The notes under the pieces: generated by a model | Databases searched by the model: none | What the model was told of the DNA's origin: nothing | What the model saw: the letters and a program-made list of their open reading frames with translations, nothing else | Source of the DNA: Blastochloris viridis | GTDB taxonomy: Bacteria; Pseudomonadota; Alphaproteobacteria; UBA2136; UBA6156 | DNA length: 64,000 bases | Direction of reading: 5' to 3' | Assembly: GCA_005768725.1 (NCBI GenBank) | Contig: VAFM01000002.1 | Span: 276,486-340,485, forward strand | Program-made: the position numbers and the translations under genes | Shown: positions 9,775-47,693 of the stretch, piece after piece | Layout of the letters: every line of letters begins with the position of its first letter | How positions within the stretch are numbered: the stretch's first letter is position 1

Positions 9775-9804
9775 CATATACGGAACGCATACAAACAATA
9801 CATT

Positions 9805-10437
9805 TCACTTACGCAACACAACACCGAACATCGCATCACCATACGTCGTGACACTCAGGTCCGGCATAGCCCGCTCAACCGTACCACCTAAAGCTTGCCA
9901 TGCCGCCGCAACTTCTTCGGCCCGATAAAAGACCATCACTCGTGGCAGATCCTTCCCCAGATTCCGCGAAACCTCCTCCCCCTCACCTTGTTTGGAGATC
10001 AGCACCGCAATGCCACCGATCACTAACCCGGTATGTATCTTCTTCACAAATGTCCGTAATTCCATACGCGGAACATGCACCAGCACCGCACACGCCCACA
10101 CCACATCGAACCCGTCCCCAAACGGCAAAGCTTCATCACTCCGCAAGTCATACTCGCTAAAATACGGTCCCACCTCACGTACAGCCTGCGCCAGTAAGGG
10201 CGGGCTCACATCACACCCATACGCGTCTGCTCCACGTCGCCGGAATTCGGCCACATCGCGCCCAAACCCGCAGCCGATGTCGAGCACCCGCCGCCCTTGC
10301 AGGTCTAGCGTCTCCAGCAAAGCGTAACACGAAGCATTACGGTTCTCGCTGTTCCGCATCTCCTTGGCCACAAACCCTGCCGCGCCGCGCTCATCGCGGT
10401 AACTGGCTACGGTCTGGTCAAAGATATCCCCCGCCAA
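9805..10437 (-). CDS. Class I SAM-dependent methyltransferase
   Basis: Motif I VLDIGCGFGRD and downstream acidic motif; occupies the slot where ddl normally lies. Confidence 0.7.
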   Translation of the reverse strand: MAGDIFDQTVASYRDERGAAGFVAKEMRNSENRNASCYALLETLDLQGRRVLDIGCGFGRDVAEFRRRGADAYGCDVSPPLLAQAVREVGPYFSEYDLRSDEALPFGDGFDVVWACAVLVHVPRMELRTFVKKIHTGLVIGGIAVLISKQGEGEEVSRNLGKDLPRVMVFYRAEEVAAAWQALGGTVERAMPDLSVTTYGDAMFGVVLRK

Positions 10438-10439
10438 CG

Positions 10440-11378
10440 CTATTCCACCCCGGTAAAGCGTACTTCCCGCTCCATCACAATCCCTAACCGCTCCAGCACC
10501 TGCGCTTCCACTTTCTGGCTCAATGCCTCAAAATCGGCCGCCGTTCCAGGCGTCCCTTCCTTGGCTCCGGCATTCACAAAAAAGTTAGCGTGCTGCTCAC
10601 TCACCTGCGCACCACCTACGCGCATACCACGGCATCCGGCTTCATCTACAATCCGCCAGGCGTTCACGCGCTCACCGTCGCGCACCACGTTCTTGAACCA
10701 ACTGCCCGAGCTCGGCATATGCAGCGGCTGCGTACTGCTGCGCGCGCGGTTGATCTCCTGCATCTGTTTGCGAATCTCTTCCTTATCGCCGGGCACCAGC
10801 TCCCATTCACCGGCCTTGTACAGCCATCCGGCAGGCAGTGCCGTGCCACGGTAACGCGGTGCCAGAAAATCCGGCGTCACTTCGCGTTCTGCGCCGTCGG
10901 CATCCAGCACCCACACACGCTTCAGCTTATCAAACGTCTCAAACCCGTAGGCCCCCGCATTCATGCGCAGCGCCCCACCGATAGCTCCGGGAATCCCCCC
11001 AAAGAACGCAATCCCTTCCAGCCCAGCCTCACGCGCGGCACGGGCGGCAGTCCCATTCGCAGCGCCCGCTTCGGCATATAATAAGGTACCGTCGACACGC
11101 ACGGCATCCAGCCCTTTGGCCAGATTCACCACCACACCGGCAATGCCACCATCACGGATCACCATATTGCTACCCTTGCCCATCGGCGTCAGCGCCACGG
11201 CATGGGCATTGCACCAGCGCACTAAAGCCGCCATCTGGTCCCAGTCGGTAACCTCAGCCATCACCTCGGCCGGGCCACCGACCTTGATCGTGGTATAATC
11301 CGCCAGCGGCACATTGCGCGTATAGCTAATACCTTCGGGCATATCCTCAAACCAAACCGGAGCAGGCCATTCCTTCAT
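10440..11378 (-). CDS. murB: UDP-N-acetylenolpyruvoylglucosamine reductase
   Basis: FAD-binding MurB-like sequence; start at internal MKEW Met. Confidence 0.88.
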   Translation of the reverse strand: MKEWPAPVWFEDMPEGISYTRNVPLADYTTIKVGGPAEVMAEVTDWDQMAALVRWCNAHAVALTPMGKGSNMVIRDGGIAGVVVNLAKGLDAVRVDGTLLYAEAGAANGTAARAAREAGLEGIAFFGGIPGAIGGALRMNAGAYGFETFDKLKRVWVLDADGAEREVTPDFLAPRYRGTALPAGWLYKAGEWELVPGDKEEIRKQMQEINRARSSTQPLHMPSSGSWFKNVVRDGERVNAWRIVDEAGCRGMRVGGAQVSEQHANFFVNAGAKEGTPGTAADFEALSQKVEAQVLERLGIVMEREVRFTGVE

Positions 11379-11389
11379 ATCGCACCGCC

Positions 11390-12841
11390 TTAATGATGGT
11401 GATGATGACCGTGATGACCATGGCCATGACCGCAATCATGCGCCGCCAGATGCTTGGCAAAATCGGTGATGGTCCCAGCACCCAGGCACACGATCACATC
11501 GCCCTTGCCCACATGCAGGTGGTGCAACACCTTCTGCAAACCGTGTTCATCAGCTACCACATGTACGTCTTCCGGCAGACCGGCTTCGTCCATTTTTTGG
11601 CCCAGAACTTCATGACTCACACCGGCGATCGGTTCTTCACCGGCACTATACACCGGCAGCAGCACGGCCACATCGGCCAGTTTGGCGCATCCGGCAAACT
11701 CGTCCATCAAGTCGCGCAAACGGGTGTAACGGTGCGGTTGAATCACCGCCACAATCTTGCCGTCATAAGCCTGCTTGGCCGCACCAAGGGTCGCCATAAT
11801 TTCAGTCGGGTGGTGGCCATAATCATCGATCACATCCGCGCCGTGCCATTCACCCACTTTCGTGAAGCGACGGCCTACACCTTCAAACCGCGCCAGCCCT
11901 TCTGCCGCCTTCACCACATCAGCCTTGGCAATGCTCGCCACTGCCAATGCCGCCAGGCTGTTCAGTACATAGTGTGCGCCCGGCAGCGCCACAACCACAT
12001 CTTCAATAATCCCACCACGCAGGCTCACATCAAACGCCATACCCATGCCGCCGTTGGGCAGGGTACCACCGGCGCGGGTCACGCTGTAGCTGTCGGTGTA
12101 CACATCGGCACCGTCTTCCATGCCGTAGGTAATCACATCCGTATCGGTCCGCGCTTCCACGATCATCGCATTGGTGTCATCACCGCAAATCACCGCCATC
12201 TCGGCACTGTTGGCAAAGTCCACAAAGGCCTGTACCAGCTTTTCCTCGGTACCGTAGGTGTCCATGTGCTCGGGCTCAATGTTGGTGATAACCGCCACGG
12301 TCGGCTTCAGTTTCAAAAAGCTCGCATCACTCTCATCGGCTTCCACCACCAGCCAGCCGCTGGTCTTCTTCGGCAGCAGCGCATTGGTGCCAAGCGCGTT
12401 CAGCACACCGCCATTGATAATCCCTGCATCCACATCCGCCGCCTTCAGTGCGGTGTACACCAGCGCAGTGGTGCTGGTTTTACCATGGGTACCGCTTACC
12501 GCTACGGTCTGGTAATTCTTCATAATTTCGGCCAGCACATCGGCACGGTGCACGGTCTGCAAACCCTGCTCTTTGGCCGCCACACGCTCCGGGTTATCAG
12601 CCGGGATCGCCGTGCTCAGCACCACGATCGCATCGCCCGGCACCTGCTCGGCCTTGTGCCCGCGGAACACCTTCACACCGGCTTTCTCCAGGCGCTCAAA
12701 ATCGCCTTTGCTGCCACCATCGCTACCAGAAACCGTGGCACCCTGCGTCGCCAGAACTTCGGCCAACCCGCTCATGCCAATACCGCCCACACCCACAAAG
12801 TGAATGCCTAAGCCTTTAACATCCTGTCCAAAAATTTTCAT
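11390..12841 (-). CDS. murC: UDP-N-acetylmuramate--L-alanine ligase with His-rich C-terminal tail (..HDCGHGHGHHGHHHHH)
   Basis: Mur ligase motifs (GTHGKTSTTAL); start at MKIFGQD with GGGAGAGAG RBS. Confidence 0.9.
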   Translation of the reverse strand: MKIFGQDVKGLGIHFVGVGGIGMSGLAEVLATQGATVSGSDGGSKGDFERLEKAGVKVFRGHKAEQVPGDAIVVLSTAIPADNPERVAAKEQGLQTVHRADVLAEIMKNYQTVAVSGTHGKTSTTALVYTALKAADVDAGIINGGVLNALGTNALLPKKTSGWLVVEADESDASFLKLKPTVAVITNIEPEHMDTYGTEEKLVQAFVDFANSAEMAVICGDDTNAMIVEARTDTDVITYGMEDGADVYTDSYSVTRAGGTLPNGGMGMAFDVSLRGGIIEDVVVALPGAHYVLNSLAALAVASIAKADVVKAAEGLARFEGVGRRFTKVGEWHGADVIDDYGHHPTEIMATLGAAKQAYDGKIVAVIQPHRYTRLRDLMDEFAGCAKLADVAVLLPVYSAGEEPIAGVSHEVLGQKMDEAGLPEDVHVVADEHGLQKVLHHLHVGKGDVIVCLGAGTITDFAKHLAAHDCGHGHGHHGHHHHH

Positions 12842-12873
12842 TCTACTCTCTCCCAAAAATAAACGTCTCAAAC

Positions 12874-13989
12874 CTAATTCTTAACGGCCTCGGCAACCAC
12901 CTGCGCCACCACACGGGTCGCATCGGGGCGGGCCAGCCCTAGCGCGGCTTTGGCCATGGCGTCAAGGCGTACCTTGTCCTGCATCAGCGCCCGCACGTGC
13001 ACCAGCAGGTTGGCCGGTGTAAAATACGGCTGCTCCACCACCACCGCAGCCCCTACCTTTTCAGCCACACTGGCGTTCAGCTTCTGGTGGCCATCCGCCA
13101 GTTCCAGCGGCACATAAATGGCAGGCACACCCATAGTGGCGCACTCCAGCACGGTACCCACCCCACTACGACCGATCACGATATCCGCCTCGGCATAGCG
13201 CTTCGGCATATCGGTAAAGAAGGTCTCTACCGTCACACCGCCCAGGCCCTGCTTGGCATAGGTGGCGGTTACACGTTCAAAGTCGTCGGCACGTACCTGC
13301 TGCACCACATGCAAACGGGCACGGTCGGCAGGCGGCAGCATTCCCACCATCTCCGGCACCACTTCGCTCAAAATGCGCGCGCCTTGGCTACCGCCCAGCA
13401 CCAGCAGGTTAAACACATCCGTGTCCTTGGCCTTCTTCGCACGCGCCGCCTCTAAAATCTCTTCACGCAGCGGGGTACCAGCCACCACAACTCGACCTTT
13501 CACACTGGGTAGATAAGCAAGGCTCTCCTCAAACGTCAGCACCACCACATCCGCAAAACGCGAAAGAAAACGGTTGGCCCGCCCCGGCAATACGTTCTGC
13601 TCATGAATGATGGTCGGCACGCCGCGCAGTTTGGCCGCCAGCATCAGCGCCACGGTGGCATACCCGCCGGTCCCGAACACCGCCACCGGCTTCTCGCGTA
13701 CCACAAGTTTCAGAGCCTTGAAGAACCCGCGCGCCAGCTTCCCGAACGCCCACAAAATCCCCAGCGGCCCGCGGTCATTAAATGCCGCGGCAGGCAAACG
13801 CACATACGGCAGACCGGTACGCTCCACCACATCCAGAAACTTGTTGCCGCCCAGAATAACTTTCACCGCAAATGCCGGACGTGTCCCCTCGGCCTCACAC
13901 AGCGCCTGCGCCACCGAAAGCGCGGGGAACAGGTGTCCCCCACTTGCACCGCTGGCTACAAGAATGGTTCGTTTTTCAGTCGTAGGCAT
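12874..13989 (-). CDS. murG: UDP-N-acetylglucosamine--N-acetylmuramyl-(pentapeptide) pyrophosphoryl-undecaprenol GlcNAc transferase
   Basis: GT28 family sequence (GGHLFPAL, GGSQGA); start at MPTTEK Met just after the ftsW stop. Confidence 0.9.
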   Translation of the reverse strand: MPTTEKRTILVASGASGGHLFPALSVAQALCEAEGTRPAFAVKVILGGNKFLDVVERTGLPYVRLPAAAFNDRGPLGILWAFGKLARGFFKALKLVVREKPVAVFGTGGYATVALMLAAKLRGVPTIIHEQNVLPGRANRFLSRFADVVVLTFEESLAYLPSVKGRVVVAGTPLREEILEAARAKKAKDTDVFNLLVLGGSQGARILSEVVPEMVGMLPPADRARLHVVQQVRADDFERVTATYAKQGLGGVTVETFFTDMPKRYAEADIVIGRSGVGTVLECATMGVPAIYVPLELADGHQKLNASVAEKVGAAVVVEQPYFTPANLLVHVRALMQDKVRLDAMAKAALGLARPDATRVVAQVVAEAVKN

Positions 13990-13993
13990 AAAA

Positions 13994-15106
13994 TTAAATC
14001 CGTTTTCCTTGTTTACGCAGCAATGCCAGCAAAAAGCCAAGCACCAGTGCCATCGCGAAGGTAGAGCTACCACCGTAACTGATGAACGGCAAGGTCATGC
14101 CGGTGGTCGGCACCAAGTGCAGCGCCACGCCAATATTCACACAGACGTGGATTGAGATCAGCGTCAGCAAGCCACCCACGCCCAGCAGCACAAAGCGGTC
14201 TTCCTGCGCCAGCACCCGAGAGAACCCGCGCAACACGAGGGTCAAAAACAGCCCCATCAGCAGTAGCCCGACCACGATACCGAACTCCTCGGCCACCACG
14301 GCAAAGATAAAGTCAGTATGCGCGTCCGGTAGTTGGTGCTTCACCACCCCTTCCCCGGCGCCACGGCCCCACAGGTGCCCCATCATAATAGCCTCATTGG
14401 CCTGGTCTACCTGATAGGTATCCGAATGCTCGGGGTTAATAAAACGCTCCAGACGGTCACGCACGTGCGGCAGCATGGTATAGGCCCCCACCACCACACA
14501 CAAACCCCCGGCCACCACAGGCGCCAGCCACAGCAGCGGCAATCCGGCCATGAAGACCTGCAGGAACCACACCAACCCCATCGCCAAGGCCATCCCGAAG
14601 TTCGGCTGCATCAGCACCGGCAGGCCTACCGCGCCCATCATCACGATACTCGCAAAATAGCCCTGCAACTGCTTGCGCTTGTCATGGCTCGCCAGCAGTG
14701 CCGCGGTCACTAAAATCAACGCCGGTTTCATGAACTCGGTCGGCTGAATACTCTGCCCGGCAATATCGATCCAGCGCCGCGCCCCCTTCACCTCGGTCCC
14801 GATCACAAACGTCAGCAAAATCCCCACAAACGCCCCAATGAACAGTAAAAAGCCCGCGCGCTTTACCCCTTCCGGCTTCAGCGTGGTCATGCCCAGCATC
14901 ACACCGAGAGCTAAGAGCAGGAACAGATAATGACGTACCGCAAAGTGGTACGGCCCCACATTATAGCTCTTGGCCACCGCCACACTCGCAGTGGTCACCG
15001 CCACCGCGCCGCATAGCATGATGACCACGATAACGGCCACCGCCACGCGGTCCATTTCCCACCACCAGCGTACCAGCGGGTGTCGGCTCTGACGATAAAT
15101 GCTCAT
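13994..15106 (-). CDS. ftsW: Lipid II flippase / peptidoglycan polymerase FtsW
   Basis: SEDS family polytopic membrane protein, 370 aa, position between murD and murG. Confidence 0.9.
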   Translation of the reverse strand: MSIYRQSRHPLVRWWWEMDRVAVAVIVVIMLCGAVAVTTASVAVAKSYNVGPYHFAVRHYLFLLLALGVMLGMTTLKPEGVKRAGFLLFIGAFVGILLTFVIGTEVKGARRWIDIAGQSIQPTEFMKPALILVTAALLASHDKRKQLQGYFASIVMMGAVGLPVLMQPNFGMALAMGLVWFLQVFMAGLPLLWLAPVVAGGLCVVVGAYTMLPHVRDRLERFINPEHSDTYQVDQANEAIMMGHLWGRGAGEGVVKHQLPDAHTDFIFAVVAEEFGIVVGLLLMGLFLTLVLRGFSRVLAQEDRFVLLGVGGLLTLISIHVCVNIGVALHLVPTTGMTLPFISYGGSSTFAMALVLGFLLALLRKQGKRI

Positions 15107-16482
15107 CGGCCCGTAACCCTCCGTTCAACCTGTTCAACGGTAACCAATCCCTGCACTAAATTGACGAACGTATCGCCACGGTGCTCAAAGTTCCGGTATT
15201 GGTCCATGCTGGCAGCAGAGGGGCTCAACAGCACAACCGCATCTTCCAGCCCTTCACTGCGCGCCGCCGCAAACGCCTCGCGCACGGCCACATCCATCGT
15301 ATGGCATTTAAAGCTCGGCACATTATGCTGGACCAACGTATCGGCAAAATCCTCGGTCGCCTGCCCGATCGTAAACGCCGCGCGCACCGCACCCAGATGG
15401 TTGATGCACGCACCAAGTCCATCGGTCTTCGGCAAGCCACCGCAGATCCAGTAAATATTCGCAAAACTCTGCAACGCATATACGGTGCTGTCACCATTGG
15501 TGGCCTTGCTGTCATTCACAAACAGAACGTCACCGACCTTCCCGACCTTTTCCAGACGGTGCGGCAAGCCCTTAAAGCTCTTGCAGGCATCCCTGAATTC
15601 CGCCGGCGTACACCACCGCGGCACCAGCAGCGCGTAGGCACAGGCCACGTTCTGGGCATTGTGCGGGCCGGGCAGATGCTCCAGATCCTCCAACGGCATC
15701 AGCGTGTCCAGCCCATGGGTCAACTTGCCTTCGGTCACCATGTAGTCGCCCACTCCAGTCACGCTCACTGTAGTCACGCCACGCGTTTCGGCCTGGCCCC
15801 GCAGCAACGGCTGGTCAATCCCCATCACCTGTACGGCTCCGGCCTTGGCCAAGTCAAATAGACGCAGTTTCGCGGCCAGATAAGCCTCCATCGTGCCGTG
15901 CCGCGCTAGGTGGTCCGGCGTCAGGTTCAGCAGCAGCGCACCATCCACCTGCAGGTCCGTCAGGGTTTCCAGTTGGTAGCTCGAAAGCTCCAGCACATAG
16001 ACACCGTTTTTCGGCAATTCCGGCAAGGCCAGCGCGGGCGTACCAATGTTCCCGCCTACCGCAACCTTGTATCCGCACACGCGCAAAATATGCCCGATAA
16101 GCGCGGTGGTCGTACTCTTGCCATTGGTGCCGGTGATGCCGATGAACGCCGCACCATTGCTGTTATCGCGACGGTACAGCAGATCCACATCGGTCATCAC
16201 CGGCACCTTGTGCGCCAGCGCGGCCCGCACCAGCGGCGTTTCCAGAGAGATCCCCGGGCTCTTTACCAGCGCACCGATGCGCGTCCAGTCCACTGCATCC
16301 GGCGCACGGACACTGAACAGGTTAGCGTCAGGGCTGGAGTTGAAATCGTCATTGTCATCCCACACAAACACTTCCACACCGGCATCCTGCAAGGCCAGCG
16401 CGGTGGCGCGGCCACTGCTGCCAAGCCCGTACACCATCACTGCCTTGTGGCCAAATCCGTAAACGTCACGCCGCATGGTCAT
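15103..16482 (-). CDS. murD: UDP-N-acetylmuramoylalanine--D-glutamate ligase
   Basis: Mur ligase (GTNGKSTTTAL); overlaps ftsW start by 4 nt. Confidence 0.9.
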   Translation of the reverse strand: MTMRRDVYGFGHKAVMVYGLGSSGRATALALQDAGVEVFVWDDNDDFNSSPDANLFSVRAPDAVDWTRIGALVKSPGISLETPLVRAALAHKVPVMTDVDLLYRRDNSNGAAFIGITGTNGKSTTTALIGHILRVCGYKVAVGGNIGTPALALPELPKNGVYVLELSSYQLETLTDLQVDGALLLNLTPDHLARHGTMEAYLAAKLRLFDLAKAGAVQVMGIDQPLLRGQAETRGVTTVSVTGVGDYMVTEGKLTHGLDTLMPLEDLEHLPGPHNAQNVACAYALLVPRWCTPAEFRDACKSFKGLPHRLEKVGKVGDVLFVNDSKATNGDSTVYALQSFANIYWICGGLPKTDGLGACINHLGAVRAAFTIGQATEDFADTLVQHNVPSFKCHTMDVAVREAFAAARSEGLEDAVVLLSPSAASMDQYRNFEHRGDTFVNLVQGLVTVEQVERRVTGR

Positions 16483-16489
16483 TCTCCTC

Positions 16490-17572
16490 CTAGCGCAGCT
16501 TCAGGGTGGCTAAACCGATCAGCGCCAGAATCACGCTGCAGATCCAGAAGCGGATGACGATCGTGCTTTCCGGCCAGCCCAACTGCTCAAAGTGGTGGTG
16601 CAGCGGCGCCATACGGAAGATACGCTTGCGGGTCAGCTTATACCCGGCCACCTGAATCATCACGCTCAACGTCTCAACCACAAACAGACCACCGATGATC
16701 AGCAGCGCAAATTCTTGCTTGATCATCACCGCCACACCACCCAGAAACGCCCCAACCGGCAGGCTGCCGCTGTCGCCTAAAAAGATGCGTGCCGGCGGCG
16801 CGTTGTACCACAAAAAGCCCAGTGTCGCGCCGGCCAGCGCGGCGCACATAATGGAGATCTCACCGCTGCCGGCAATATGCGGCAGGTGCAAATAGGCGGT
16901 ATAGTCCACACGGCCCATCACGTAGGCTAAAATCGCCATGGTCGTCGCCACCAGCACCACCGGAATACTCACCAGCCCGTCCAGACCATCGGTCAGGTTC
17001 ACGGCATTGGCGGTGCCGACCATTACCAGCACCCCGAACATCACAAAACCCCAGATGCCGATGCCGACCACCAACTCCTTGATGAACGGGAAATAGATCT
17101 CGGTCGAAACGGCGGTACCGTTCACGTACACATAGCCCAGCAAAAACACGGTACTGATGAATGTCCCCAGCGCCAGCCGCAGCTTGCCCGGCAAACCCTT
17201 CTTCCACCGGCGGGTCAGGTTCAGATAGTCATCCATAAACCCGATGGCACCATACCCGACCAGCAGGAACAGCAGCAGCCATACATAACCATTGGCCAGA
17301 TTCGCCCACAGCAGGGTCGCCAGCGTCATGGCCCCCACAACGCCAATACCGCCCATGCTGGGGGTACCGGCCTTGCCCTGATGAGGCAGAATCGCCTTCA
17401 CGGTATCGCCACCCTTCTGCCACAGGCGGAAGGCGGTGATAAGCCGGGTACCGAACACCAGCCACAGCAAAAATGCCGTAAACATGGCCGCACCGGCGCG
17501 TACAGTTAAGTACTGGAACACATTGAACCAGTTCACATAATCCACAAAGGGAAGCAACAAGGCAGGAATCAT
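16490..17572 (-). CDS. mraY: Phospho-N-acetylmuramoyl-pentapeptide transferase
   Basis: MraY-like 360-aa polytopic membrane protein. Confidence 0.92.
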   Translation of the reverse strand: MIPALLLPFVDYVNWFNVFQYLTVRAGAAMFTAFLLWLVFGTRLITAFRLWQKGGDTVKAILPHQGKAGTPSMGGIGVVGAMTLATLLWANLANGYVWLLLFLLVGYGAIGFMDDYLNLTRRWKKGLPGKLRLALGTFISTVFLLGYVYVNGTAVSTEIYFPFIKELVVGIGIWGFVMFGVLVMVGTANAVNLTDGLDGLVSIPVVLVATTMAILAYVMGRVDYTAYLHLPHIAGSGEISIMCAALAGATLGFLWYNAPPARIFLGDSGSLPVGAFLGGVAVMIKQEFALLIIGGLFVVETLSVMIQVAGYKLTRKRIFRMAPLHHHFEQLGWPESTIVIRFWICSVILALIGLATLKLR

Positions 17573-17723
17573 GCCGCAGTATCCCCCTTTTTAACCCGAA
17601 ACACCAGAGCCTGAGCCACGCCACCGCTGCAAAATCCGGCAGCACCTTCGCCCTTGCAAAAGCCCCTGCCCCGCCCCACACTCGTAGTCGAATAAAACGG
17701 CATCAACAAGAAAGGAGTATGCC

Positions 17724-18065
17724 ATGAAACACATCGTCCCGGCCTTGGCCGCTCTCGCTTTTCTGCTGACGCCGCTCGCGGCCTCCGCCGATACCCTCTC
17801 CGCCTGCAAAGCCAACTACCCCAAGGCCAAATCAATCACCCCCGTCCTTTCGGTCACCGAAGTCGGGAACGATTATTTTGTGACCGCCAACGGCAAACGC
17901 TTCAAGGCCCGCTTCGAGGAAGACAACTACGCCAGTTTCCTCACCGCCATCGGCGGCGGCAAAGTAACCCTCTACGCCGACACCCAAGGCAATCTCTACG
18001 GCCCGAACATCGCCGGAAACGATTCCCTGCTGACGGCCGAAGAACGCGCCTGCATCCGCTTCTGA
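17724..18065 (+). CDS. Small secreted protein (113 aa), hypothetical
   Basis: Signal peptide ..LTPLAASA; AAGAAAGGAG RBS; strong terminator downstream. Confidence 0.55.
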   Translation: MKHIVPALAALAFLLTPLAASADTLSACKANYPKAKSITPVLSVTEVGNDYFVTANGKRFKARFEEDNYASFLTAIGGGKVTLYADTQGNLYGPNIAGNDSLLTAEERACIRF

Positions 18066-18080
18066 CCACCCACATCTCCA

Positions 18081-18112
18081 AGCCTCCCGCCCCGTGCGGG
18101 AGGCTTTTTTTG
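18081..18112 (+). terminator. Rho-independent terminator
   Basis: agcctcccgc-cccgt-gcgggaggct then T7. Confidence 0.7.
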
Positions 18113-18266
18113 TGCCCTAACCCTCTGCCGTTCCGGTTAACCCATTGTGGGAACACGGCAGGCATGCTAGCGTTTCCCTAACAAATATAAAAAGACGCAT
18201 CTTTCTCTTACGTTGTAATGCGGCACCCACCTTATCGACTCTCAGCGACTACAGAAAGGTTAGGCC

Positions 18267-18914
18267 ATGCTGAAATCTATGCGCATATTCGCCTGCTCGT
18301 GTGCTGTTCTGGTAGGGCTGGCGCCGCTCGCGGCCTCCGCCGGGCAGGTTCTGGTAACACCGGATAACTTCCCCAAGGAATGCAGCGACGACATCTTCGA
18401 CAATACCGCCTACAGTGGCCCGGTCTCGGTCTACACCGTCCGCAACCTGCGGCAGGACAAGAACGACCCGTACCAGATCCAGTTCCAGATCAGCGACAGC
18501 AAGACCATCGTCTTCAAGACCGCCTTCCTGCGGGATCTTGACGACGAAACCATCCAGCAGGTCGACGGCTACCTCAAGAAGAAGAAAGGCCTGTTCGTGG
18601 CCTTCATCCAGCCGGGCACCGCGCATCTGGGCCCTGAAGGCGCACTTCCGGTAAGCAGTCCCGAGTCCAGGCTCGACTTCTTCCTGATAGCCTCGATCAG
18701 CATGGGCAACGGCAACCCGCCGATGTGCAGCTACCTGAGCCAGCCCGCCGGCTTGCCGCAGGAAGCTTACCAACACATGCCGGAGCGCATCCAACTGCTG
18801 ATGAACTGGGTGAAGGACGCCATGACGAAAGACATGGCCAACGCCTTCGCCGCCTTCACTACGAAGCAGCAGAACACCCCAGACCTCGTCGCCGACGACG
18901 ACGTCTTCAAGTAA
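18267..18914 (+). CDS. Secreted protein (215 aa), hypothetical
   Basis: Signal peptide ..LAPLAASA (same signal-peptide end as the 17724 gene); AGAAAGG RBS. Confidence 0.55.
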   Translation: MLKSMRIFACSCAVLVGLAPLAASAGQVLVTPDNFPKECSDDIFDNTAYSGPVSVYTVRNLRQDKNDPYQIQFQISDSKTIVFKTAFLRDLDDETIQQVDGYLKKKKGLFVAFIQPGTAHLGPEGALPVSSPESRLDFFLIASISMGNGNPPMCSYLSQPAGLPQEAYQHMPERIQLLMNWVKDAMTKDMANAFAAFTTKQQNTPDLVADDDVFK

Positions 18915-18952
18915 GTCTCCGCCAGCACGTTCCTGCTGGCCCCAACAAAAAA

Positions 18953-18978
18953 AGTCCCCGCCAAACGGGGACTTTTTC
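18953..18978 (+). terminator. Rho-independent terminator
   Basis: agtccccg-ccaaa-cggggact then ttttcc. Confidence 0.6.
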
Positions 18979-18991
18979 CATAGATAAAGGC

Positions 18992-20437
18992 CTAACCGCC
19001 CAGCACCTCACGGGCCACCAATCGGTCATCGAATGGATGCACCTCATCGCCCACGATCTGCCCGCTCTCATGCCCCTTCCCGGCGATCAGCACCACATCG
19101 TCCGGCCCGCCATCGGCAATCGCCGCCGCAATCGCGGCCTTGCGGTCATCAAATTCCAGTCCCTTGGCGCCGCCCGCGGTCACACCGGCCAATACCTGCT
19201 GCCGGATGTCCGCTGCATTCTCCTTGCGCGGGTTATCATCGGTCACATACACCACATCGGCCAGCTCGGCGGCAATGCGGCCCATAATCGGGCGCTTGGT
19301 CGCATCACGGTTCCCGCCACAGCCAAATACCACACGCAGTTTACCGCCACCTTTCACTACCGGACGCAGGCTCTCCAAAGCGCGCTGCAACGCATCCGGC
19401 TTGTGGGCATAGTCGACCACCACGCTTGGCTGGGTTGGCGCACTCTTCACCACTTCCATCCGTCCCGGCACAGCGGTCATGCGGCTCACGGCACCCGAGA
19501 TTTTTTTCCAATCATGACCGCTTCCCACCAGCAGGCCCAGCGCTACCGCCAGATTTTCGGCCTGGAACGTCCCGATCAGCGGCACATGCACCGGCACCGG
19601 TACACTATCATATTTCAAATTCAGTTGCAGGCCACGGCCGTTAGCTTCCACCACTTCCGCCACCAGTTCAGCGTTAGCGGTGCCCACGGTCAGCACCCGG
19701 CAGCCGCGCTGCTTGGCCACACTCGCGGCAGGCAGGGTTTCCATACGCCCGATGTTCAACACCGCCGTGCCATCTTCCGGCAGAACCTCGGCAAACAGGC
19801 GTAATTTAGCCGCATGGTACTCGGCCAGATCACCATGGAAATCGAGGTGATCCTGCGTAATATTCGTCAATCCCGCCGCAGTGAACTTGACCGCATCCAC
19901 ACGGTTCAGTACCAGCGCATGGCTGCTCACTTCCAGTAGGCAGGTCTGCACCTTCTCGCGTGCCAGTGTCTGCAAAATCGGCCCTATTTTCAGCGCGTTA
20001 GGGCTTGTAAAACCGGTATATTCAGTCTCTACATCCTCATCCTTGCGCATCACGCCCAGCGTTCCTACGCTGGCGGCATTCACCCCGCTCAACTGGGCCA
20101 GCTGACGCCCGAACCACACCACGCTGGTCTTGCCGCTGGTACCGGTTACACCCAGCATAACGGGCGGTTGTTCCGGCCAGCGCAGCGCCGCAAAGCGCGA
20201 AAGCACCTCCCCCGCATTCGTCACCTGCACCGCACCGTCCACCGGCACATCGGTCACAATGGCAGTTGCTCCTTTGGCCTTGGCGTCGGCCACCAGTGCC
20301 GCCACATCCTGCTTGGGCGCCACACGGCTGTCCCATACAAACACATCACCCGCCGCCAGCTTGCGCGTGTCATCACACACGTTCTGTACCGCAAAATCCG
20401 CCGCCACCGGCTGCCCTACAATCTCTGAAAATTTCAT
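18992..20437 (-). CDS. murE: UDP-N-acetylmuramoyl-L-alanyl-D-glutamate--2,6-diaminopimelate ligase
   Basis: Mur ligase (GVTGTSGKTS), 481 aa; DAP-type specificity assumed from Gram-negative context. Confidence 0.9.
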   Translation of the reverse strand: MKFSEIVGQPVAADFAVQNVCDDTRKLAAGDVFVWDSRVAPKQDVAALVADAKAKGATAIVTDVPVDGAVQVTNAGEVLSRFAALRWPEQPPVMLGVTGTSGKTSVVWFGRQLAQLSGVNAASVGTLGVMRKDEDVETEYTGFTSPNALKIGPILQTLAREKVQTCLLEVSSHALVLNRVDAVKFTAAGLTNITQDHLDFHGDLAEYHAAKLRLFAEVLPEDGTAVLNIGRMETLPAASVAKQRGCRVLTVGTANAELVAEVVEANGRGLQLNLKYDSVPVPVHVPLIGTFQAENLAVALGLLVGSGHDWKKISGAVSRMTAVPGRMEVVKSAPTQPSVVVDYAHKPDALQRALESLRPVVKGGGKLRVVFGCGGNRDATKRPIMGRIAAELADVVYVTDDNPRKENAADIRQQVLAGVTAGGAKGLEFDDRKAAIAAAIADGGPDDVVLIAGKGHESGQIVGDEVHPFDDRLVAREVLGG

Positions 20438-20490
20438 TCGTTTATCTCCCTCAAATTCTGCGGTGCATCAGCACCGTTATCACGGCTCAC

Positions 20491-20601
20491 TCACGAGGTT
20501 GAAACGGTCATCCCGGTGCTTTTTGGTTTGGCGCGGTGTACGGAACATGGGGTACATAAGCCAAACCAAAAAGTGCTGGGGGGCCGTTTCAACCCGTGAG
20601 G
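20491..20601. repeat. 111-nt imperfect palindrome (about 40-nt arms, 28-nt loop) filling the ftsI-murE gap, abutting the ftsI stop codon
   Basis: Left arm cacgaggttgaaacggtcatcccggtgctttttggtttggc pairs with right arm gccaaaccaaaaagtgctggggggccgtttcaacccgtgagg; loop contains tgtac..gtaca core. Confidence 0.6.
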
Positions 20602-22461
20602 TTAATCAACCACTTCACCCGTTGCATCAGGTCGTAATTTCACGCCCCCCGCACTACCGCGCTTGGTTCTAAAATCGCTCAACACATACGTCTGCCACGG
20701 GTCATTGTACTTGCGCTTGGTACGGTCCAGCAGCGCACGGTAGGCGGTTACTTCATCCATGTCCGGCTTTAGCGCGGCAAGTTGGGTCAGGTCACGGTAA
20801 AAGTCTCCCACCACCGGTGCCGCGCTCTTACCACCGGTCTCATAGCCCTTCTTCGGCTCGTCTAGCATCACCAGCGTAATATATTCCGGGTTCTTCATCG
20901 GCAACACACCCACGTAACTCACGCGGTTCTTGTCCTTGGCATAACCACGGCCAACAATCTTTTCCGCCGTCCCGGTCTTGCCGCCAATATCATAACCTAC
21001 CACCTGGCTGCTACGCCCACTGCCATTCAGCACCACGTCACGCATCAGCACATGGATCTGCTCCAGTGTGGCGTCATCGATCAACCGGCGCGGCTGCGTC
21101 GTGCTCACACCGCCCAGCAACACGCTGGGGTGCTTTACGTAGCCGTCGGCAAGTGTGGCCACGGCATTCACAAGGTGCACCGGCGTCACACTCATCCCGT
21201 GACCAAACGAAATGGTAAAGGTCTGAATGCGTCCCCAGTTGTTCGGGTAACGCACATTCCCCACTTCGGGGATACCCGTCTGGATCGGCTCAAGCATGCC
21301 GAGCTTGGTCATGAATTCCTTCTGCGCGGCAGGGCCGCTCATGTCAGCGATCTTCGCCGCCCCGATGTTGGACGAATAACGCAGCACTTCATTGGCGGTC
21401 AGAATCGCCTTCTTGGCGTGGAAGTCCTTAATCGTGTAACGCCCGATGGAGATCGGCGTCCGCGCATCGATCAGCGTATCCGGCGTGATCTTCTTCTCCA
21501 CCAAACCTTGCGCCAGCGTAAAGAGCTTGAAGGTGCTCCCCATTTCGTAGCTGCCCAGCGTTACGTGGTTGAACATCTCGGCGGGCGTGGCCTTGCCTAG
21601 GTGGTTCGGGTCGTAATCGGGCAGACTGACCAGCGCCACGATCTCACGGGTCGGCGCCTTCATCACCAGTGCCCACGCGGCTTTGCTCTCGCTCTTGTCC
21701 TTCATTTCGATCAGACGCCGACGCAGCATTTCCTGCAACCGCACATCAAGCCCGAGGTGAATATCCTCACCCGCCGCCAACTGCGTGTTAAAGCCGCGTT
21801 CCACACCGGCCAAGCCGGTATTGTCCACGTCCACCGCACCCAGCACGTGGCTGGCCAGGTTCTTGTGCGGATACACCCGCACGAACTCTTCCCGGAATTC
21901 CAAGCCCGGCAACCCGAGCGCATTCACTTTCTGCGCCTCATCCGGCGTCAGGCGGCGCTTGATCCAGATAAACCGGCGGCTCGGGTCTTCAAGCTGCGCT
22001 TTCAGGCGCGCCATGTCCAAGCCCGGCAGCGCCTGCGGCAGGCGGCGTATCACGTCCTGGGGGTCCAGAATACGCTTGGGGTCGGCGTACAGGCTGTACA
22101 CCTTCAACGTAGCCGCCAGCAGCACGTTATTGCGGTCGTAAATATTCCCGCGGCGCAGCGTCTCCTTGGGCATCTCCCGGATGCTCGGACGCGGCTCGGC
22201 CGGCGGCATAAGACCCACATAGGCCAATTTTGCCCCCACACCGGCAAACGCCAGCGTCAGCACACCCATCACAATCATCGCACGGAAGTGCGCGGCAACC
22301 CCGCTCTCCACGATCTCGGCCCGGGTGGGCATAAAGCCACGCGCCGCGTGGGTCTTCACCCGCCGCTGCTGTACGGTGCTACGCTTCGGGGTAAATACGG
22401 GCGTGTTGTCACGTCCGCGCCCGATGCGCGCACTTTCCCAAGGCTTCTTGAATTGGCTCAT
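20602..22461 (-). CDS. ftsI: Peptidoglycan D,D-transpeptidase FtsI (PBP3)
   Basis: STFK, SSN and KTG motifs; N-terminal TM; 619 aa. Confidence 0.9.
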   Translation of the reverse strand: MSQFKKPWESARIGRGRDNTPVFTPKRSTVQQRRVKTHAARGFMPTRAEIVESGVAAHFRAMIVMGVLTLAFAGVGAKLAYVGLMPPAEPRPSIREMPKETLRRGNIYDRNNVLLAATLKVYSLYADPKRILDPQDVIRRLPQALPGLDMARLKAQLEDPSRRFIWIKRRLTPDEAQKVNALGLPGLEFREEFVRVYPHKNLASHVLGAVDVDNTGLAGVERGFNTQLAAGEDIHLGLDVRLQEMLRRRLIEMKDKSESKAAWALVMKAPTREIVALVSLPDYDPNHLGKATPAEMFNHVTLGSYEMGSTFKLFTLAQGLVEKKITPDTLIDARTPISIGRYTIKDFHAKKAILTANEVLRYSSNIGAAKIADMSGPAAQKEFMTKLGMLEPIQTGIPEVGNVRYPNNWGRIQTFTISFGHGMSVTPVHLVNAVATLADGYVKHPSVLLGGVSTTQPRRLIDDATLEQIHVLMRDVVLNGSGRSSQVVGYDIGGKTGTAEKIVGRGYAKDKNRVSYVGVLPMKNPEYITLVMLDEPKKGYETGGKSAAPVVGDFYRDLTQLAALKPDMDEVTAYRALLDRTKRKYNDPWQTYVLSDFRTKRGSAGGVKLRPDATGEVVD

Positions 22462-22523
22462 TCGCCACCATAATGCTTAAAAACAAAGCCACCCACAAGG
22501 GTGGCCGCCACGTCTCCGCGCGT

Positions 22524-23009
22524 TTATTCGGCAGCGGCGGCAGGCACAAGGGTTTCCGAAACCTCCTCAACCGCCTCGCTCGGCAAAGCCGCTTCCGGCG
22601 GCACGGTGGTGGTGGATGACGTCCCTTCAGCCACCATCGCGGGCCCCGTCTCCTCCACCTCACTGTTACTGACAAACCCGGCAGCCAGTACCGCTGCCAC
22701 AGCGCTACCCGAAACCACGCGCGGTGCCGCCGGCACCGTGCCGCTCACCGGCTCCATCGGCGCAATAATATCCAGCGCAGTGGCAGGCACATACCCCATG
22801 GTCTGAACCACACGCTCCATGCGGCTGGGGCTGGCCAACAAGGCCCATTCCGCTTCCAGCACCCGCTTGGTCTCGCGCAGCTCGGCACGCTCGCGCACCA
22901 GTTGCATACGCTGGCGGTCCATGGTCTGGACGTCGGTCTTGATACGCATCATGCCGGCAAACGCCGCCACACTCAGCAATACCGCCAGCAACACCAGACT
23001 ATTTCTCAT
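22524..23009 (-). CDS. ftsL: Cell division protein FtsL-like (TM anchor + coiled coil, Ala/Glu/Val-rich tail)
   Basis: Position immediately upstream of ftsI; N-terminal TM then REAELRETKRVLEAEW coiled coil. Confidence 0.6.
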   Translation of the reverse strand: MRNSLVLLAVLLSVAAFAGMMRIKTDVQTMDRQRMQLVRERAELRETKRVLEAEWALLASPSRMERVVQTMGYVPATALDIIAPMEPVSGTVPAAPRVVSGSAVAAVLAAGFVSNSEVEETGPAMVAEGTSSTTTVPPEAALPSEAVEEVSETLVPAAAAE

Positions 23010-23035
23010 ACCCCCAACCTAACAGCGCCTCAGCT

Positions 23036-23072
23036 GCAAAACAAGACCGGCCCCTTCAGGCCGGTCTGTTTG
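23036..23072. terminator. Bidirectional terminator between ftsL start region and the 23092 gene
   Basis: aaaacaag-agaccggcccc-ttca-ggccggtct-gttt. Confidence 0.55.
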
Positions 23073-23091
23073 GCGGGCAGCCGTGTGACTT

Positions 23092-23727
23092 CTAGTGTCC
23101 GCTGCCCTGGGCCTCGGCACCTGCCGGAGGCGTTTCATCGGCCGGAGTCGCCGGTTGGATCTCAGCGGTCGGGGTCGCTGGCTTTTCATCAATGGCCGGT
23201 TCCTTTACAGGAGCCGTTTCTGCCGGAGCGGTTTCCGCAGGCAGAGCTTCCTCGGTGGCAGCCTCTTCCTTCACAACCACCTTCTTGGCAGCCTTCTTCA
23301 CAGCCGGTTTGGCAACAGGGGTCGGCACACGTTTGCCGTTCTCATCCCAACGGTCAGCAAACTTGGCTTCGCCTTTACCCACAACAAACAAGCCGCTGGT
23401 CGGGTCAAAGGTAAAGCGGTCATATCCCTTTTCACGGGCATATTCCTGCCAGCTCTTGTCAGCCGTGTCCGGGAACTGGGTGGTGGTGCCGTCTTCCAGC
23501 TTCACGGTCGCCATGTGGCCCGGGTCAACGGTCGGGGCGCTGCCAACAGCCGTGGTTTCCACGGTAGTGTAGGTGGTCGTGGTGGTGGTCGGCACGTCCG
23601 AGTACGGGTTGGCCGGTACTTCGTGGGTCACGGTCGTGGTGTTTTCTACCTGCTCAACCATCACTTGGGCGTTAGCTTGGGTAGCTACCAGAGCAGCGGC
23701 CGCAGCAACATACAACATCTTGTTCAT
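23092..23727 (-). CDS. Secreted protein with poly-Thr tract and Lys/Ala/Pro/Glu-rich (histone H1-like) C-terminus
   Basis: Signal peptide MNKMLYVAAAAALVATQANA; AGGAGAAAA RBS at internal Met. Confidence 0.55.
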   Translation of the reverse strand: MNKMLYVAAAAALVATQANAQVMVEQVENTTTVTHEVPANPYSDVPTTTTTTYTTVETTAVGSAPTVDPGHMATVKLEDGTTTQFPDTADKSWQEYAREKGYDRFTFDPTSGLFVVGKGEAKFADRWDENGKRVPTPVAKPAVKKAAKKVVVKEEAATEEALPAETAPAETAPVKEPAIDEKPATPTAEIQPATPADETPPAGAEAQGSGH

Positions 23728-23932
23728 TTTAGGTTTTTCTCCTGTGTTGGATACCTTCATCATAAAGGCTCATCGGCAGTATAATGCACAATCACGCGGT
23801 TTGTTCAGCGTTTGGGTACGCTGCGTGCGCTTTTTTCCCAAGGGGGTGTGCCCATGGGGTTTTCCAATCATCCCGGAACCTTTGCCACGCTGTCCCGTCT
23901 CTCTCTTGATTAAGAAAACGACCAAGAAAGGT

Positions 23933-35416: not shown

Positions 35417-35428
35417 TTCTTCACTCCA

Positions 35429-35453
35429 ATAAAAAGCCCCGTAACGGGGCTTT
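35429..35453 (-). terminator. Rho-independent terminator after rsmH
   Basis: On minus strand: agccccg-tta-cggggct followed by TTTTT. Confidence 0.6.
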
Positions 35454-35461
35454 CTTCACTC

Positions 35462-36457: not shown

Positions 36458-36633
36458 GGCCGCCTTCTACCCCAAATCGCAGATTAACCCAAGCGAAAAA
36501 GCGGCGCGAAGCCGCATTATTTCTGAATTTTTTTCGTATTTTAGTAAACTACCAACCTAAAAAAACGAGCCTCCCCCGAAGCTCGTTTTCACAAAGATAA
36601 TTTTCCAGTCGAAGGAAAGTTCCCTCACCTTTT

Positions 36634-37494: not shown

Positions 37495-37498
37495 GCAC

Positions 37499-38020
37499 CT
37501 GCACGGGGTCACCGCGAGCCGCAAGGTTCGAGGAAAGTCCGGGCACCCACGGGCCACCGGCCGGAGAATATCCGGGCTGGCGACTCCCGCCAGACCAACA
37601 GGGCCACAGAAAAGAACCACCCCAGCAATGGGGAACGGGTGAAAAGGTAGGGTAAAAGCCTACCGCCGTTTCTAGCAATAGAGCGGGCGAGAGTAGGTTC
37701 CAGAATCGCTAGGCAGAGGTGATTTTTGAGATTTGCAAAGACTGAGCACCGTAAGTGTACACGCGAGTACACGCGGAGCGGAAGGCAAGCAAAGCTCAAA
37801 AAGCGCTCTGCATAGTAGATTCTGGAGCCTACTCGAAGGTAACCTGCCGGAGGGTGCAATGCTAAATAGGGACTCCCAGTGGCGCGGTCCGCGTCCGAAG
37901 CGCAAGCCGAGGAGGGTCCGGGTTGGCAGCTTGACGCCTGACGCAAGTCAGCGCGCAGATGAATGGTGACCGATCCCGCAAGGGAGAACAGAACCCGGCT
38001 TATACGTGCAGCAGGAGACT
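37499..38020 (+). ncRNA. rnpB: RNase P RNA (bacterial type A) with about 127-nt repeat-element insertion in helix P12
   Basis: P4 core AGGAAAGTCCGGGC (37531-37544), 3' core ACAGAACCCGGCTTATACG, P1/P2 complementarity (ggtcacc/ggtgacc); terminator hairpin follows. Confidence 0.78.
37699..37825 (+). repeat. Structured repeat element, copy 1 (diverged), inserted at the tip of rnpB P12
   Basis: ccagaatcgctaggcagag..gcaccgtaagtgtacacgcgagtacacgcggagcg..tagtagattctgg; homologous to copies at 38098 and 41420. Confidence 0.7.
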
Positions 38021-38097: not shown

Positions 38098-38236
38098 CTC
38101 CGGAACTCGCTGGCAGCGAGGGATTTTTGATTTTCTCCGCTGATGCTAGCACCGTAAGTGTACAAGGTCGGTACATGCGGAGCGCAGCATCAAGGAAAAA
38201 TCAAAAAGCACCGCTGTCCAGTAGAGTTCGGTTCCT
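38098..38236 (+). repeat. Structured repeat element, copy 2 (about 138 nt, long imperfect hairpin with terminal inverted repeats ccggaactc / gagttcgg)
   Basis: ccggaactcgctggcagcgagggatttttgattttctccgctgatgctagcaccgtaagtgtacaaggtcggtacatgcggagcgcagcatcaaggaaaaatcaaaaagcaccgctgtccagtagagttcgg. Confidence 0.7.
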
Positions 38237-41419: not shown

Positions 41420-41554
41420 CCCCGGAACTCGCTGAGCGCGAGGGATTTTTTGTTTTCTCCGCAGAGACGAGCACCGCAAGTGTACGAGGTTGTACATGCG
41501 GAGCGCAGGAACAAGGAAAAACAAAAAAGCACCGCGCTCAGTAGAGTTCGGTGC
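41420..41554 (+). repeat. Structured repeat element, copy 3, between fumC and flgE
   Basis: ccggaactcgctgagcgcgagggattttttgttttctccgcagagacgagcaccgcaagtgtacgaggttgtacatgcggagcgcaggaacaaggaaaaacaaaaaagcaccgcgctcagtagagttcgg. Confidence 0.7.
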
Positions 41555-47456: not shown

Positions 47457-47490
47457 AAAAAAAACACCGGCCCCAGGGCCGGTTCCTTTT
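47457..47490 (+). terminator. Rho-independent terminator after fliP
   Basis: A8-caccggcc-ccag-ggccggt-tcctttt. Confidence 0.65.
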
Positions 47491-47693
47491 GGCGCAAGGC
47501 ATGCGCAAAACGCATAGCTCTCCCGGCGCCAACCGCGCATGAAATACCCATGCGCGGAAGCCCCTGCGCACGGAGCTAGAAACCTTTATTCTGGGGTGAT
47601 GAGGCAAACCGACGTGTACAGATACGTACACGAGGATTGACGAAGCGCCACAGAGAAAGGTTTTAGCCCGCGCCTTTCAACACCGCCTACGCC

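Follow-up and report, generated by a model that had tools for sequence, protein, structure and literature searches.

Introduction

What is a palindrome of 111 nt doing between two genes of an essential gene cluster? The question is raised by a 64,000-nt stretch of Blastochloris viridis DNA (GTDB lineage Alphaproteobacteria; UBA2136; UBA6156; contig VAFM01000002.1, positions 276,486 to 340,485), referred to here as the window, which holds part of the division and cell wall (dcw) cluster. On its minus strand, a gene for a penicillin-binding protein/FtsI-type transpeptidase (22461..20602, here ftsI) is followed by murE (20437..18992; identities from NCBIfam), and the spacer between them (20438-20601, 164 nt) contains a long hairpin, here named hairpin D. 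A first-pass annotation of the sequence had considered an attenuator, a processing site, or a miniature inverted-repeat element that had landed in the operon. The analysis presented here indicates that the palindrome is one copy of a widespread, undescribed family of dispersed long hairpin repeats. With modest confidence, D is read as a structured repeat resembling repetitive extragenic palindromes (REPs) and the hairpins formed by REP doublets (REPINs), and as forming a hairpin just past the ftsI stop codon.

Results and discussion

A stable hairpin directly behind the ftsI stop codon

The palindrome had been described at first pass as directly abutting the ftsI stop codon, and was delimited there by the entire gap. 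The hairpin itself is confined to 111 nt of the junction, and G20601 is the sole base that separates its foot from the stop codon (Table 1). On the plus strand, 46 base pairs are predicted, i.e., 40 Watson-Crick and 6 G·U pairs (87% Watson-Crick). When a 121-nt segment containing D is folded as RNA, the plus strand reaches -78.8 kcal/mol (z = -12.7) and the minus strand, which is the mRNA sense, -58.8 kcal/mol (z = -8.5), and for neither strand was any of 200 shuffles as good. The large stem-loop that had been foreseen in the ftsI-murE transcript is therefore also predicted here. Folded as DNA, D gives -42.2 kcal/mol for the plus strand vs -35.7 kcal/mol for the minus strand. The two RNAs differ by 20 kcal/mol as a consequence of five stem positions at which a G·U pair of the plus strand turns into A·C in the mRNA. 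The G·U-rich strand, called the forward strand below, is thus the plus strand at D and lies antisense to ftsI-murE.

In the apical 6-bp stem of D, three of the six pairs are invariant in all 14 copies of the type to which D belongs (type 2, see below), and the remaining three vary in one to three copies. K-turns, the sarcin-ricin loop, SECIS elements, and attC cores were judged by eye on the internal loops, and none fits. D has no GANTC sites, which occur in only some copies of the other type (type 1), and an assignment to the Caulobacter-type intergenic repeats with GANTC was rejected for this reason. A small GC hairpin precedes D on its 5' side; its stem covaries in relatives (CGGTGT..ACACCG in L003), and its role is either that of a partner to the element or that of the target of insertion. 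The first-pass annotation had recognized the repeat, and had missed this small hairpin, the location of the genes on the minus strand, and the orientation relative to replication.

Table 1. Coordinates of hairpin D, its surroundings, and the other family copies in the window.
Feature	Position	Strand	Basis or remark
murE start codon (20435-37) and Shine-Dalgarno sequence GAGGGAG (20446-52)	20435..20452	-	both unpaired in the predicted mRNA-sense fold
Small GC hairpin CGGTGC-atca-GCACCG	20461..20476	+	14 nt 5' of hairpin D
Hairpin D, type-2 copy (111 nt)	20490..20600	+	predicted folds, R1 match, full-length alignment with unlinked copies elsewhere
Apical module of D: GTGTAC, 10-nt loop, GTACAT	20536..20557	+	stem arms 20536-41 / 20552-57
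ftsI stop codon TAA (TTA on + strand)	20602..20604	-	1 nt from the foot of hairpin D
Copy A, type 1, inside the RNase P RNA gene	37689..37834	+	R2, 106.8 bits
Copy B, type 1	38099..38233	+	R2, 141.5 bits; 9 nt from the stop of an opposite-strand amidase gene (Pfam)
Copy C, type 1	41421..41553	+	R2, 150.5 bits; between the flgE stop (18 nt away) and the flgE terminator
Module M (47489-47532) and small hairpin (47533-47557), upstream of E	47489..47557	+	alignment
Copy E, divergent type 2	47568..47674	+	R1, 73.3 bits; 19 nt from the stop of a gene for a tetratricopeptide repeat (TPR) protein (Pfam)
Apical motif sites	20536 (D), 37755 (A), 38158 (B), 41480 (C), 47614 (E)	+	motif scan

Hairpin D is one copy of a dispersed family

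The tgtac..gtaca core of D had been likened to the centers of repeats at 37699, 38098, and 41420. This likeness holds and extends to a fifth copy at 47568, as the motif GTGTAC-N4-14-GTACA occurs at five sites in the window, all on the plus strand, vs 0.17 expected. A pattern fitting copies A-D was then used to scan one genome per GTDB species. Among the 54 loci obtained, about 22 lie in a few uncultured alphaproteobacterial metagenome-assembled genomes (MAGs), namely, C4_MAG_00017, UBA6156, D8_MAG_00060, RI_491, and a mislabelled 'P. fluorescens' MAG, and the rest are about the number expected by chance. Beyond the five window copies, about 26 more were found in C4_MAG_00017, UBA6156, D8_MAG_00060, RI_491, and QFOU01, and a single 1-Mb contig of C4_MAG_00017 carries eight copies. 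The search for further copies that the first-pass annotation had proposed thus yielded dispersed ones in the window and in related MAGs, in agreement with its notion of a repeated inverted-repeat element inside an essential gene cluster.

Two types of copy are distinguished. Type 1 is about 133 nt long and includes A, B, and C, and type 2 is about 110 nt long, with the consensus CGCGAGGCTACAAACGG.CATCCCGGTGCTTTTTGGCGGGGCGC.GTGTAC-loop-GTACATAAGCCACGCCAAAAAGTGCTGGGGGGCCGTTTTAGCCCGCG, to which D aligns over its full length. Each type is represented by a covariance model, R1 for type 2 and R2 for type 1. R1 matches D with 110.9 bits (E = 3e-28); it also found new copies in L003, L007, and L024, scored hybrid copies at about 48 bits, and matched some type-1 copies elsewhere. 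R2 scores A, B, and C at 107-150 bits; D is not matched by R2, nor are A-C by R1. The resemblance between the types is real, but it rests on intermediates, namely, hybrid copies with type-1 outer stems and a type-2 apex. Members of the family are hairpins of about 110-135 nt in which the GUGUAC/GUACAY apical stem is near-invariant, a U5G/CA5G box is present, and the other stems covary.

Membership in this family decides against a chance or local origin of the palindrome (e.g., by template switching, unrelated to other sequences), an idea that is rejected with near certainty. A first comparison with L003 had suggested that part of the right arm was pre-existing, and growth of D by template switching from an ancestral mini-hairpin was considered on this basis. 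However, the whole 111 nt, including the outer stem, fits the consensus of unlinked copies, and the z scores of -8.5 to -12.7 speak against chance as well.

The divergent copy E has the apex CGAC-GTGTAC..GTACAC-GAG, and is preceded by a further module, M (TTGGCGCGAGACATGCGC..GCGCATAGCTCTCCTAGCGCCAA), and a small hairpin. The same pair precedes five type-2 copies (E in the window; L003, L027, L045, and L062), a mosaic arrangement like that of bacterial interspersed mosaic elements (BIMEs), and no Rfam match was obtained for M. In Rfam 15, the only match of the window at threshold is RNase P, and permissive scans of D, A/B, and E returned only generic long-hairpin (miRNA-like) matches far below threshold. 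The family was not found in the literature searched by name and by sequence string, and nothing relevant to it came from plasmid and phage BLAST or from the hairpins flanking Y1-transposase (TnpA) genes in the supplement of PMC6006769. Two short-read Logan contigs from the same organism (L185 and L186) end inside copy B; such repeats break assemblies.

Pairing is conserved, with G·U pairs on one strand only

In 14 aligned type-2 copies, 95.9% of the cells are standard-paired, and 27 of the 40 pairs have changed on both sides. None of 500 shuffles reaches these values, and slid registers fall to 33-51% paired. The folding and covariation check that had been called for thus came out positive, with both RNA strands stable beyond the shuffles. 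The strands are not equivalent: 67 cells are G·U vs 6 A·C, with the G·U pairs confined to one strand, some stem positions swap among G·U, G-C, and A-U, and the plus strand folds better in all five window copies.

Copies are only 38-86% identical in pairwise comparison, within as well as between genomes, and no pair is near-identical, so the family is old, with no recent burst visible. One orthologous pair could be compared, namely, copy C and L055 (C4_MAG), both located after flgE. These two are identical at 119 of 132 positions (90%), next to 61% at the third and 92% at the second codon positions of flgE, and 62% and 47% in the two flanking spacers. A variable stem specific to this copy is kept in L055, which excludes homogenization among paralogs and points to purifying selection on copy C at the flgE locus.

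A by-product of the mutation pressure behind GC skew was considered as the source of the G·U asymmetry and rejected. From what is established on how mutation bias produces GC skew, leading-strand C-to-T changes would place the wobbles on the opposite strand. The composition of D itself (36 G, 24 C) has a skew opposite to that of its surroundings, which also weighs against such an origin, and the asymmetry is therefore taken not to be a mutational by-product. Covariation and the G·U pattern point to the forward strand as the relevant one, whereas the adjacency to stop codons points to the reverse (mRNA) strand. The supposition that the structure evolved for the ftsI-murE mRNA finds no support at D, where the better-folding strand is antisense to the operon.

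These observations bear on the possibility that the forward-strand RNA is functional, either as a barrier or pause hairpin against antisense transcription entering leading-strand genes at their 3' ends, in the direction head-on to replication, or as a structured small RNA. The exchanges among G·U, G-C, and A-U and the excess of G·U over A·C cells are what selection at the RNA level predicts, and the direction of the asymmetry appears opposite to what GC-skew mutation bias would produce. The forward strand folds better in most hairpins of the wider superfamily described below (65 of 74 among the matches listed), it is transcribed inside the RNase P RNA and an rRNA spacer, and in type 1 a terminator-like small hairpin and a U-rich linker come before the long hairpin in this direction. 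However, no promoter for forward transcription was found at D, the flanks differ between copies, no U-tract follows the long hairpin, and tight stop-codon adjacency is more naturally a feature of mRNA. A function of the forward RNA is therefore regarded as quite unlikely.

Copies have a fixed orientation relative to replication and abut stop codons

All 31 copies of the alphaproteobacterial clade have their forward strand on the C-rich (lagging-strand) sequence. At these loci, the absolute GC skew is 0.13-0.31, except for the outlier L031 (-0.06), and the direction is the same for all eight copies on one 1-Mb contig and all five in the window. The skew is equal over gene blocks of either strand (+0.23 vs +0.25 in L003) and, being independent of gene strand, marks the replication strand. 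That the polarity is a side effect of gene orientation is unlikely in this clade, given the equal skew over both strands and the absence of any reversed copy among the 31, although the abutting genes are mostly leading-strand housekeeping genes. In the window, the GC skew of the plus strand is about -0.15 and is negative in 31 of 32 2-kb windows, which is unusually strong and again independent of gene strand (as in L003 and L005); from this uniformity, the whole 64 kb appears to lie within one replichore with the minus strand leading.

In about 22 of the 31 copies, a gene on the opposite strand ends close by, its stop codon being -12 to +20 nt from the 3' foot of the element (see Table 1 for the four distances in the window). 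Three copies overlap the ends of open reading frames (ORFs) by 12 nt and themselves supply the stop codon. For example, the type-2 copy at L007 6752-6861, in the dcw region, overlaps the last 12 nt of murD in antisense orientation and supplies its stop codon; the same 12-nt overlap is seen in L012 and L045. In L007, an acetyltransferase gene follows the murD-overlapping copy and is inserted before ftsW. On the 5' side, a small perfect GC hairpin occurs at 0-22 nt in 15 of 30 copies (13 of these at 10-16 nt), vs only 4 of 30 on the 3' side. Whether the small hairpin is part of the element is doubtful, as its sequence differs at every copy and a native helix, P14, fills the role in rnpB; in favor of such a part, L005, which has no trace of D, is also without the small hairpin.

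The polarity brings in another explanation, namely, that D is a passenger, i.e., a non-autonomous element without a host role that moved in single-stranded DNA form at the replication fork, as IS200/IS605 elements do or REPINs with their REP-associated tyrosine transposase (RAYT), by means of an HUH or similar enzyme. Orientation relative to replication is strongly biased in IS200/IS605 elements (PMC3971601, PMC6006769), and here it is absolute. Structure is conserved while sequence varies, and the near-invariant apical hairpin is as expected of a protein recognition site. Copies sit 10-16 nt 3' of small hairpins, a role that in rnpB is played by P14, which is present without the insertion too (L005), and the three 12-nt overlaps with ORF ends also fit. 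On the other hand, the lack of near-identical copies gives no sign of recent movement, and the ortholog of copy C is conserved far better than neutral sites, which is unexpected for a purely selfish element. The exposed template is that of the lagging strand, whereas the forward strand lies on that of the leading strand, and G·T pairs are of little benefit in DNA. Moreover, there is no GTAG at the foot, and no Y1 gene was found in about 300 kb of the clade, which is a weak test as the query sequences were approximate. Taken together, a mere passenger is unlikely.

One copy is inserted in the RNase P RNA gene

The rnpB gene of the window (37496-38018, plus strand) is 523 nt long and carries in its specificity domain a type-1 insert of about 146 nt, copy A (about 37689-37834). 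The insert lies between P14 and the 3' strand of P11, where the Rfam alignment has 168 nt vs 21 in the model, and the conserved core of the RNA still scores 166.6 bits. The native P14 hairpin stands at the position taken elsewhere by the small hairpin, 5' of copy A. An independent assembly (L184) has an identical 523-nt rnpB, while the ortholog in L005 is 383 nt long, with P14 and without the insert; comparison of the filled site in the window with the empty one in L005 gave no clear target duplication. After rnpB, at 38020-38096, two terminator-like hairpins are found, GGGGCCC-tcg-GGCCCC with a T-run and then CCGCC-ataa-GGCGG with GTTTGTTT; copy B is preceded by the second one, which is its small hairpin.

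Hairpin D is an old insertion that close relatives have lost

The history of D was followed in the ftsI-murE spacers of relatives ordered by MurE identity. Two separate assemblies (L001 and L002) share with the window an identical MurE (100%) and an identical spacer of 164 nt with the intact element. In L007 (MurE 95%, spacer 56 nt) the element is gone and the small hairpin has decayed, and remnants are present in the C4_MAG-like L003 (94%, 82 nt) and in L009 (88%, 84 nt). The spacer of L004 is short (87%, 33 nt), and its first ~15 nt may be a faint remnant; L005 (82%, 28 nt) has no element. The small hairpin persists in L003 and L009 with a compensatory change, and so does a 17-nt stub, GGYTGAAAC-RR-TYARCC, which is the outer stem of the element without its interior. 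As this stem belongs to the consensus of unlinked copies, the stubs are remnants of internal deletions, and it follows that the insertion predates these lineages and is intact only in that of the window. By this comparison of sequences, D is shown to be vertically inherited from an old insertion in an ancestor of the window lineage. The first-pass premise that ftsI and murE normally touch or nearly so applies to the two most distant relatives (L005 and L004), but not to the closer ones, with their spacers of 56, 82, and 84 nt.

The same comparison bears on the idea of a dedicated cis-regulator of ftsI-murE, i.e., an attenuator or an RNase III/RNase E site that sets the ftsI:murE ratio. The exact location between both cistrons and the very stable sense stem-loop would suit such a role. 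It is largely refuted by the presence of the same element at many unrelated loci, and further weakened by its loss in L007 despite a MurE 95% identical, its reduction to a stub in L003 and L009, the absence of a U-tract, and the antisense location of the better-folding strand. A locus-specific attenuator or processing site, as first proposed, is thus very improbable.

The dcw cluster itself is fragmented in the window, with parts at 9800-23800 and 35400-37300: mraZ and rsmH are found at 35.4-37.3 kb, about 12 kb from the ftsI-murE unit and its adjoining unannotated ORFs, whereas mraZ to murE are contiguous in L005. Between murE and mraY there is no murF, and two opposite-strand ORFs without Pfam matches are found there instead (17724-18065 and 18267-18914).

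Comparison with known repeats and mobile elements

Among known elements, REPs and REPINs are the closest kind. Like these, the family is dispersed, multi-copy, and extragenic (five copies in 64 kb; eight on the 1-Mb contig of C4_MAG_00017), it occurs in mosaics with other small motifs as BIMEs do, and it is often found no more than 15-20 nt from a stop codon, a location in which REPs influence translation and the stability of mRNA (PMC12306157). A REPIN folds into a long hairpin of about 70-110 nt, parts of which are conserved while the remainder shows compensatory changes (PMC3116915). A long hairpin with compensatory changes is present here as well, but neither of its ends forms a short palindrome of its own, and conservation is highest at the apex. 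REPs are defined by GT[AG]G 0-2 nt 5' of the foot of a 7-20-bp hairpin (PMC6006769), and neither GTAG nor GTGG is present at the feet of D or of the type-2 consensus; in type 1, a GTAG is conserved, but inside the 3' arm. The fixed orientation relative to replication is a further difference, as is the occurrence of the same apex across phyla, REPs being species-specific.

The IS200/IS605 elements share the fixed replication orientation (31/31 here), and their hairpins are recognized on one strand only. However, the family has a single long hairpin, without two subterminal hairpins or a conserved tetranucleotide at the boundaries, and no tnpA-like match was obtained in about 300 kb (weak tblastn, approximate queries). 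In addition, its better-folding strand lies on the leading-strand template and not on the lagging-strand template.

The attC sites of integrons form imperfect hairpins of 57-141 nt in which structure, not sequence, is conserved; only one strand, the one antisense to the upstream gene, gives the active fold. Each site starts at the stop codon of the gene before it, and in chromosomal integrons the active strand lies on the leading-strand template. One-strand folding, abutment to stop codons, and location on the leading-strand template are thus common to attC and the family. D and the consensus are, however, without RYYYAAC/GTTRRRY cores, no cassette arrays and no integrase were found nearby, and the copies are dispersed beside housekeeping genes (ftsI, flgE, groEL, tuf).

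ERIC/RU-1, Correia, and Rickettsia palindromic elements are likewise imperfect palindromes of 100-150 nt in transcribed intergenic regions, sometimes at gene ends or in RNA genes. The family is not known to resemble them in sequence, and it differs from them by its non-random orientation and by having neither near-identical copies nor a terminal-repeat/target-duplication signature. A classical miniature inverted-repeat transposable element (MITE), as had been suggested for D, is discarded: terminal inverted repeats, target-site duplication, and near-identical recent copies were not found, the copies are 38-86% identical, and one ortholog appears to be under purifying selection. The family is therefore of the intergenic palindromic-repeat kind, neither terminator nor classical MITE, and works most like REP/REPIN elements, yet without the feature by which these are defined.

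A wider superfamily shares the extended apex

Copy E and a few others have the extended apex CGAC-GTGTAC-N6-GTACAC-GAG. When metagenomes were scanned with this 19-nt apex, at least 120 loci (L064-L183) were obtained, with GC contents of 0.32-0.72. The superfamily apex, CGACGTGTAC-N5-8-GTACACGAG, tops long hairpins whose foot typically lies on the stop codon of an opposite-strand housekeeping gene. Among the loci listed, 74 are long hairpins, 65 of which fold better on the forward strand, and the forward strand is on the C-rich strand at 41 loci vs 13, the contigs being short and noisy. An opposite-strand ORF ends -15 to +10 nt from the 3' foot in 43 of the 74 hairpins, with one more at +31, whereas the mirror arrangement occurs in 20 of the 74 and shows no peak. 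The neighbor genes presumably include groEL, tuf, guaB, pstB, rpsP, and folD, as their C-terminal sequences were recognized by eye. The copy in L157 is located between two tRNAs of an rRNA spacer, and there the sense strand is the forward strand.

The superfamily is linked to the alphaproteobacterial copies through R2, the type-1 model, which matches superfamily loci at 22-49 bits, on the forward strand in all cases but one, and detects extra copies on the same contigs; the GC-rich soil form and type 1 have GAGGGATTTTG...CAAAAGA in common. Rfam gave no match for 20 superfamily metagenome loci. Long hairpins laid out as GCxTTTTTGG..GTGTAC-loop-GTACAC..CCAAAAAGCGC were seen in MAGs of gut Bacteroidales (L057, L061) and Clostridia (L059), and L059 also has the extended CGAC/GAG apex.

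A bolder and unlikely view of these data is that GUGUAC-apex hairpins form an unrecognized cross-phylum class of host-maintained single-strand signals (RNA or DNA), placed at gene 3' ends with one polarity relative to replication and transcription and read by a conserved factor. Such signals might block antisense transcription that proceeds head-on to replication, or serve as strand-specific sites of recombination or priming. If this were true, the ftsI-murE copy would be one instance of a signal benign enough to be tolerated inside RNase P RNA.

Probable action on the ftsI-murE mRNA

In the REP/REPIN-like reading preferred here, the hairpin is considered in the mRNA, where it follows the end of ftsI. 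What the dcw mRNA carries is the weaker reverse complement of D, a stem-loop of -59 kcal/mol that starts 1 nt after the UAA. No terminator-like site was found on either strand at 20200-20800, and no sigma-70-like promoter in the ftsI-murE gap. Past the hairpin, the sense strand reads ...CGUGAGUGAGCC, without a U-tract, and the notion of D as a terminator, with neither U-tract nor promoter-like site, is abandoned. As the gap has neither promoter nor terminator, murE must be read through from ftsI, and the predicted mRNA-sense fold leaves its Shine-Dalgarno sequence unpaired.

In E. coli, REPs located up to 15 nt from a stop codon cause ribosome stalling and reduced translation (PMC12306157, citing Liang et al. 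2015), and REPs stabilize upstream mRNA (PMC6006769). By analogy, a ribosome terminating on ftsI would have to melt the base of the hairpin, which may slow termination, and the hairpin could shield the upstream mRNA from 3' exonucleases, while transcription would continue into murE with the murE ribosome-binding site left free. Such an effect of a hairpin after the stop codon is probably the most likely local consequence of D.

Several observations weigh against this view of D as a REP-like hairpin acting in the mRNA. The strand that is kept foldable is antisense to the mRNA, where the conserved wobbles become A·C, which argues that the mRNA hairpin is not the selected form, and in two cases where a copy lies in a stable-RNA context (rnpB and the rRNA spacer of L157), it is the forward strand that is transcribed. 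Features that define REPs were not seen, as the foot carries no GT[AG]G and a REP doublet is not obvious; nor did a Y1/RAYT gene turn up in about 300 kb of the clade, in a weak tblastn with approximate query sequences and no match below E = 0.29. Furthermore, D is lost in close relatives, which can thus do without any function that it has locally. Foldability of the forward strand and its polarity relative to replication could be maintained by a single-strand DNA enzyme or by a function at the RNA level.

Implications

For the ftsI-murE locus, the idea of a regulator dedicated to the ftsI:murE ratio gives way to that of a general element. The family to which this element belongs is a structured repeat, apparently under purifying selection, with a near-invariant 6-bp apex and absolute polarity in the alphaproteobacterial clade; together with its relatives, it abuts the stop codons of housekeeping genes (ftsI, flgE, groEL, tuf, guaB) across GC contents of 0.32-0.72, and it is not in Rfam. 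In practical terms, such repeats break short-read assemblies and inflate RNA genes, as in the 523-nt rnpB. More broadly, the family offers a tractable case for the purpose of REP-like elements and for the way in which single-strand structures are read at replication forks or at mRNA 3' ends.

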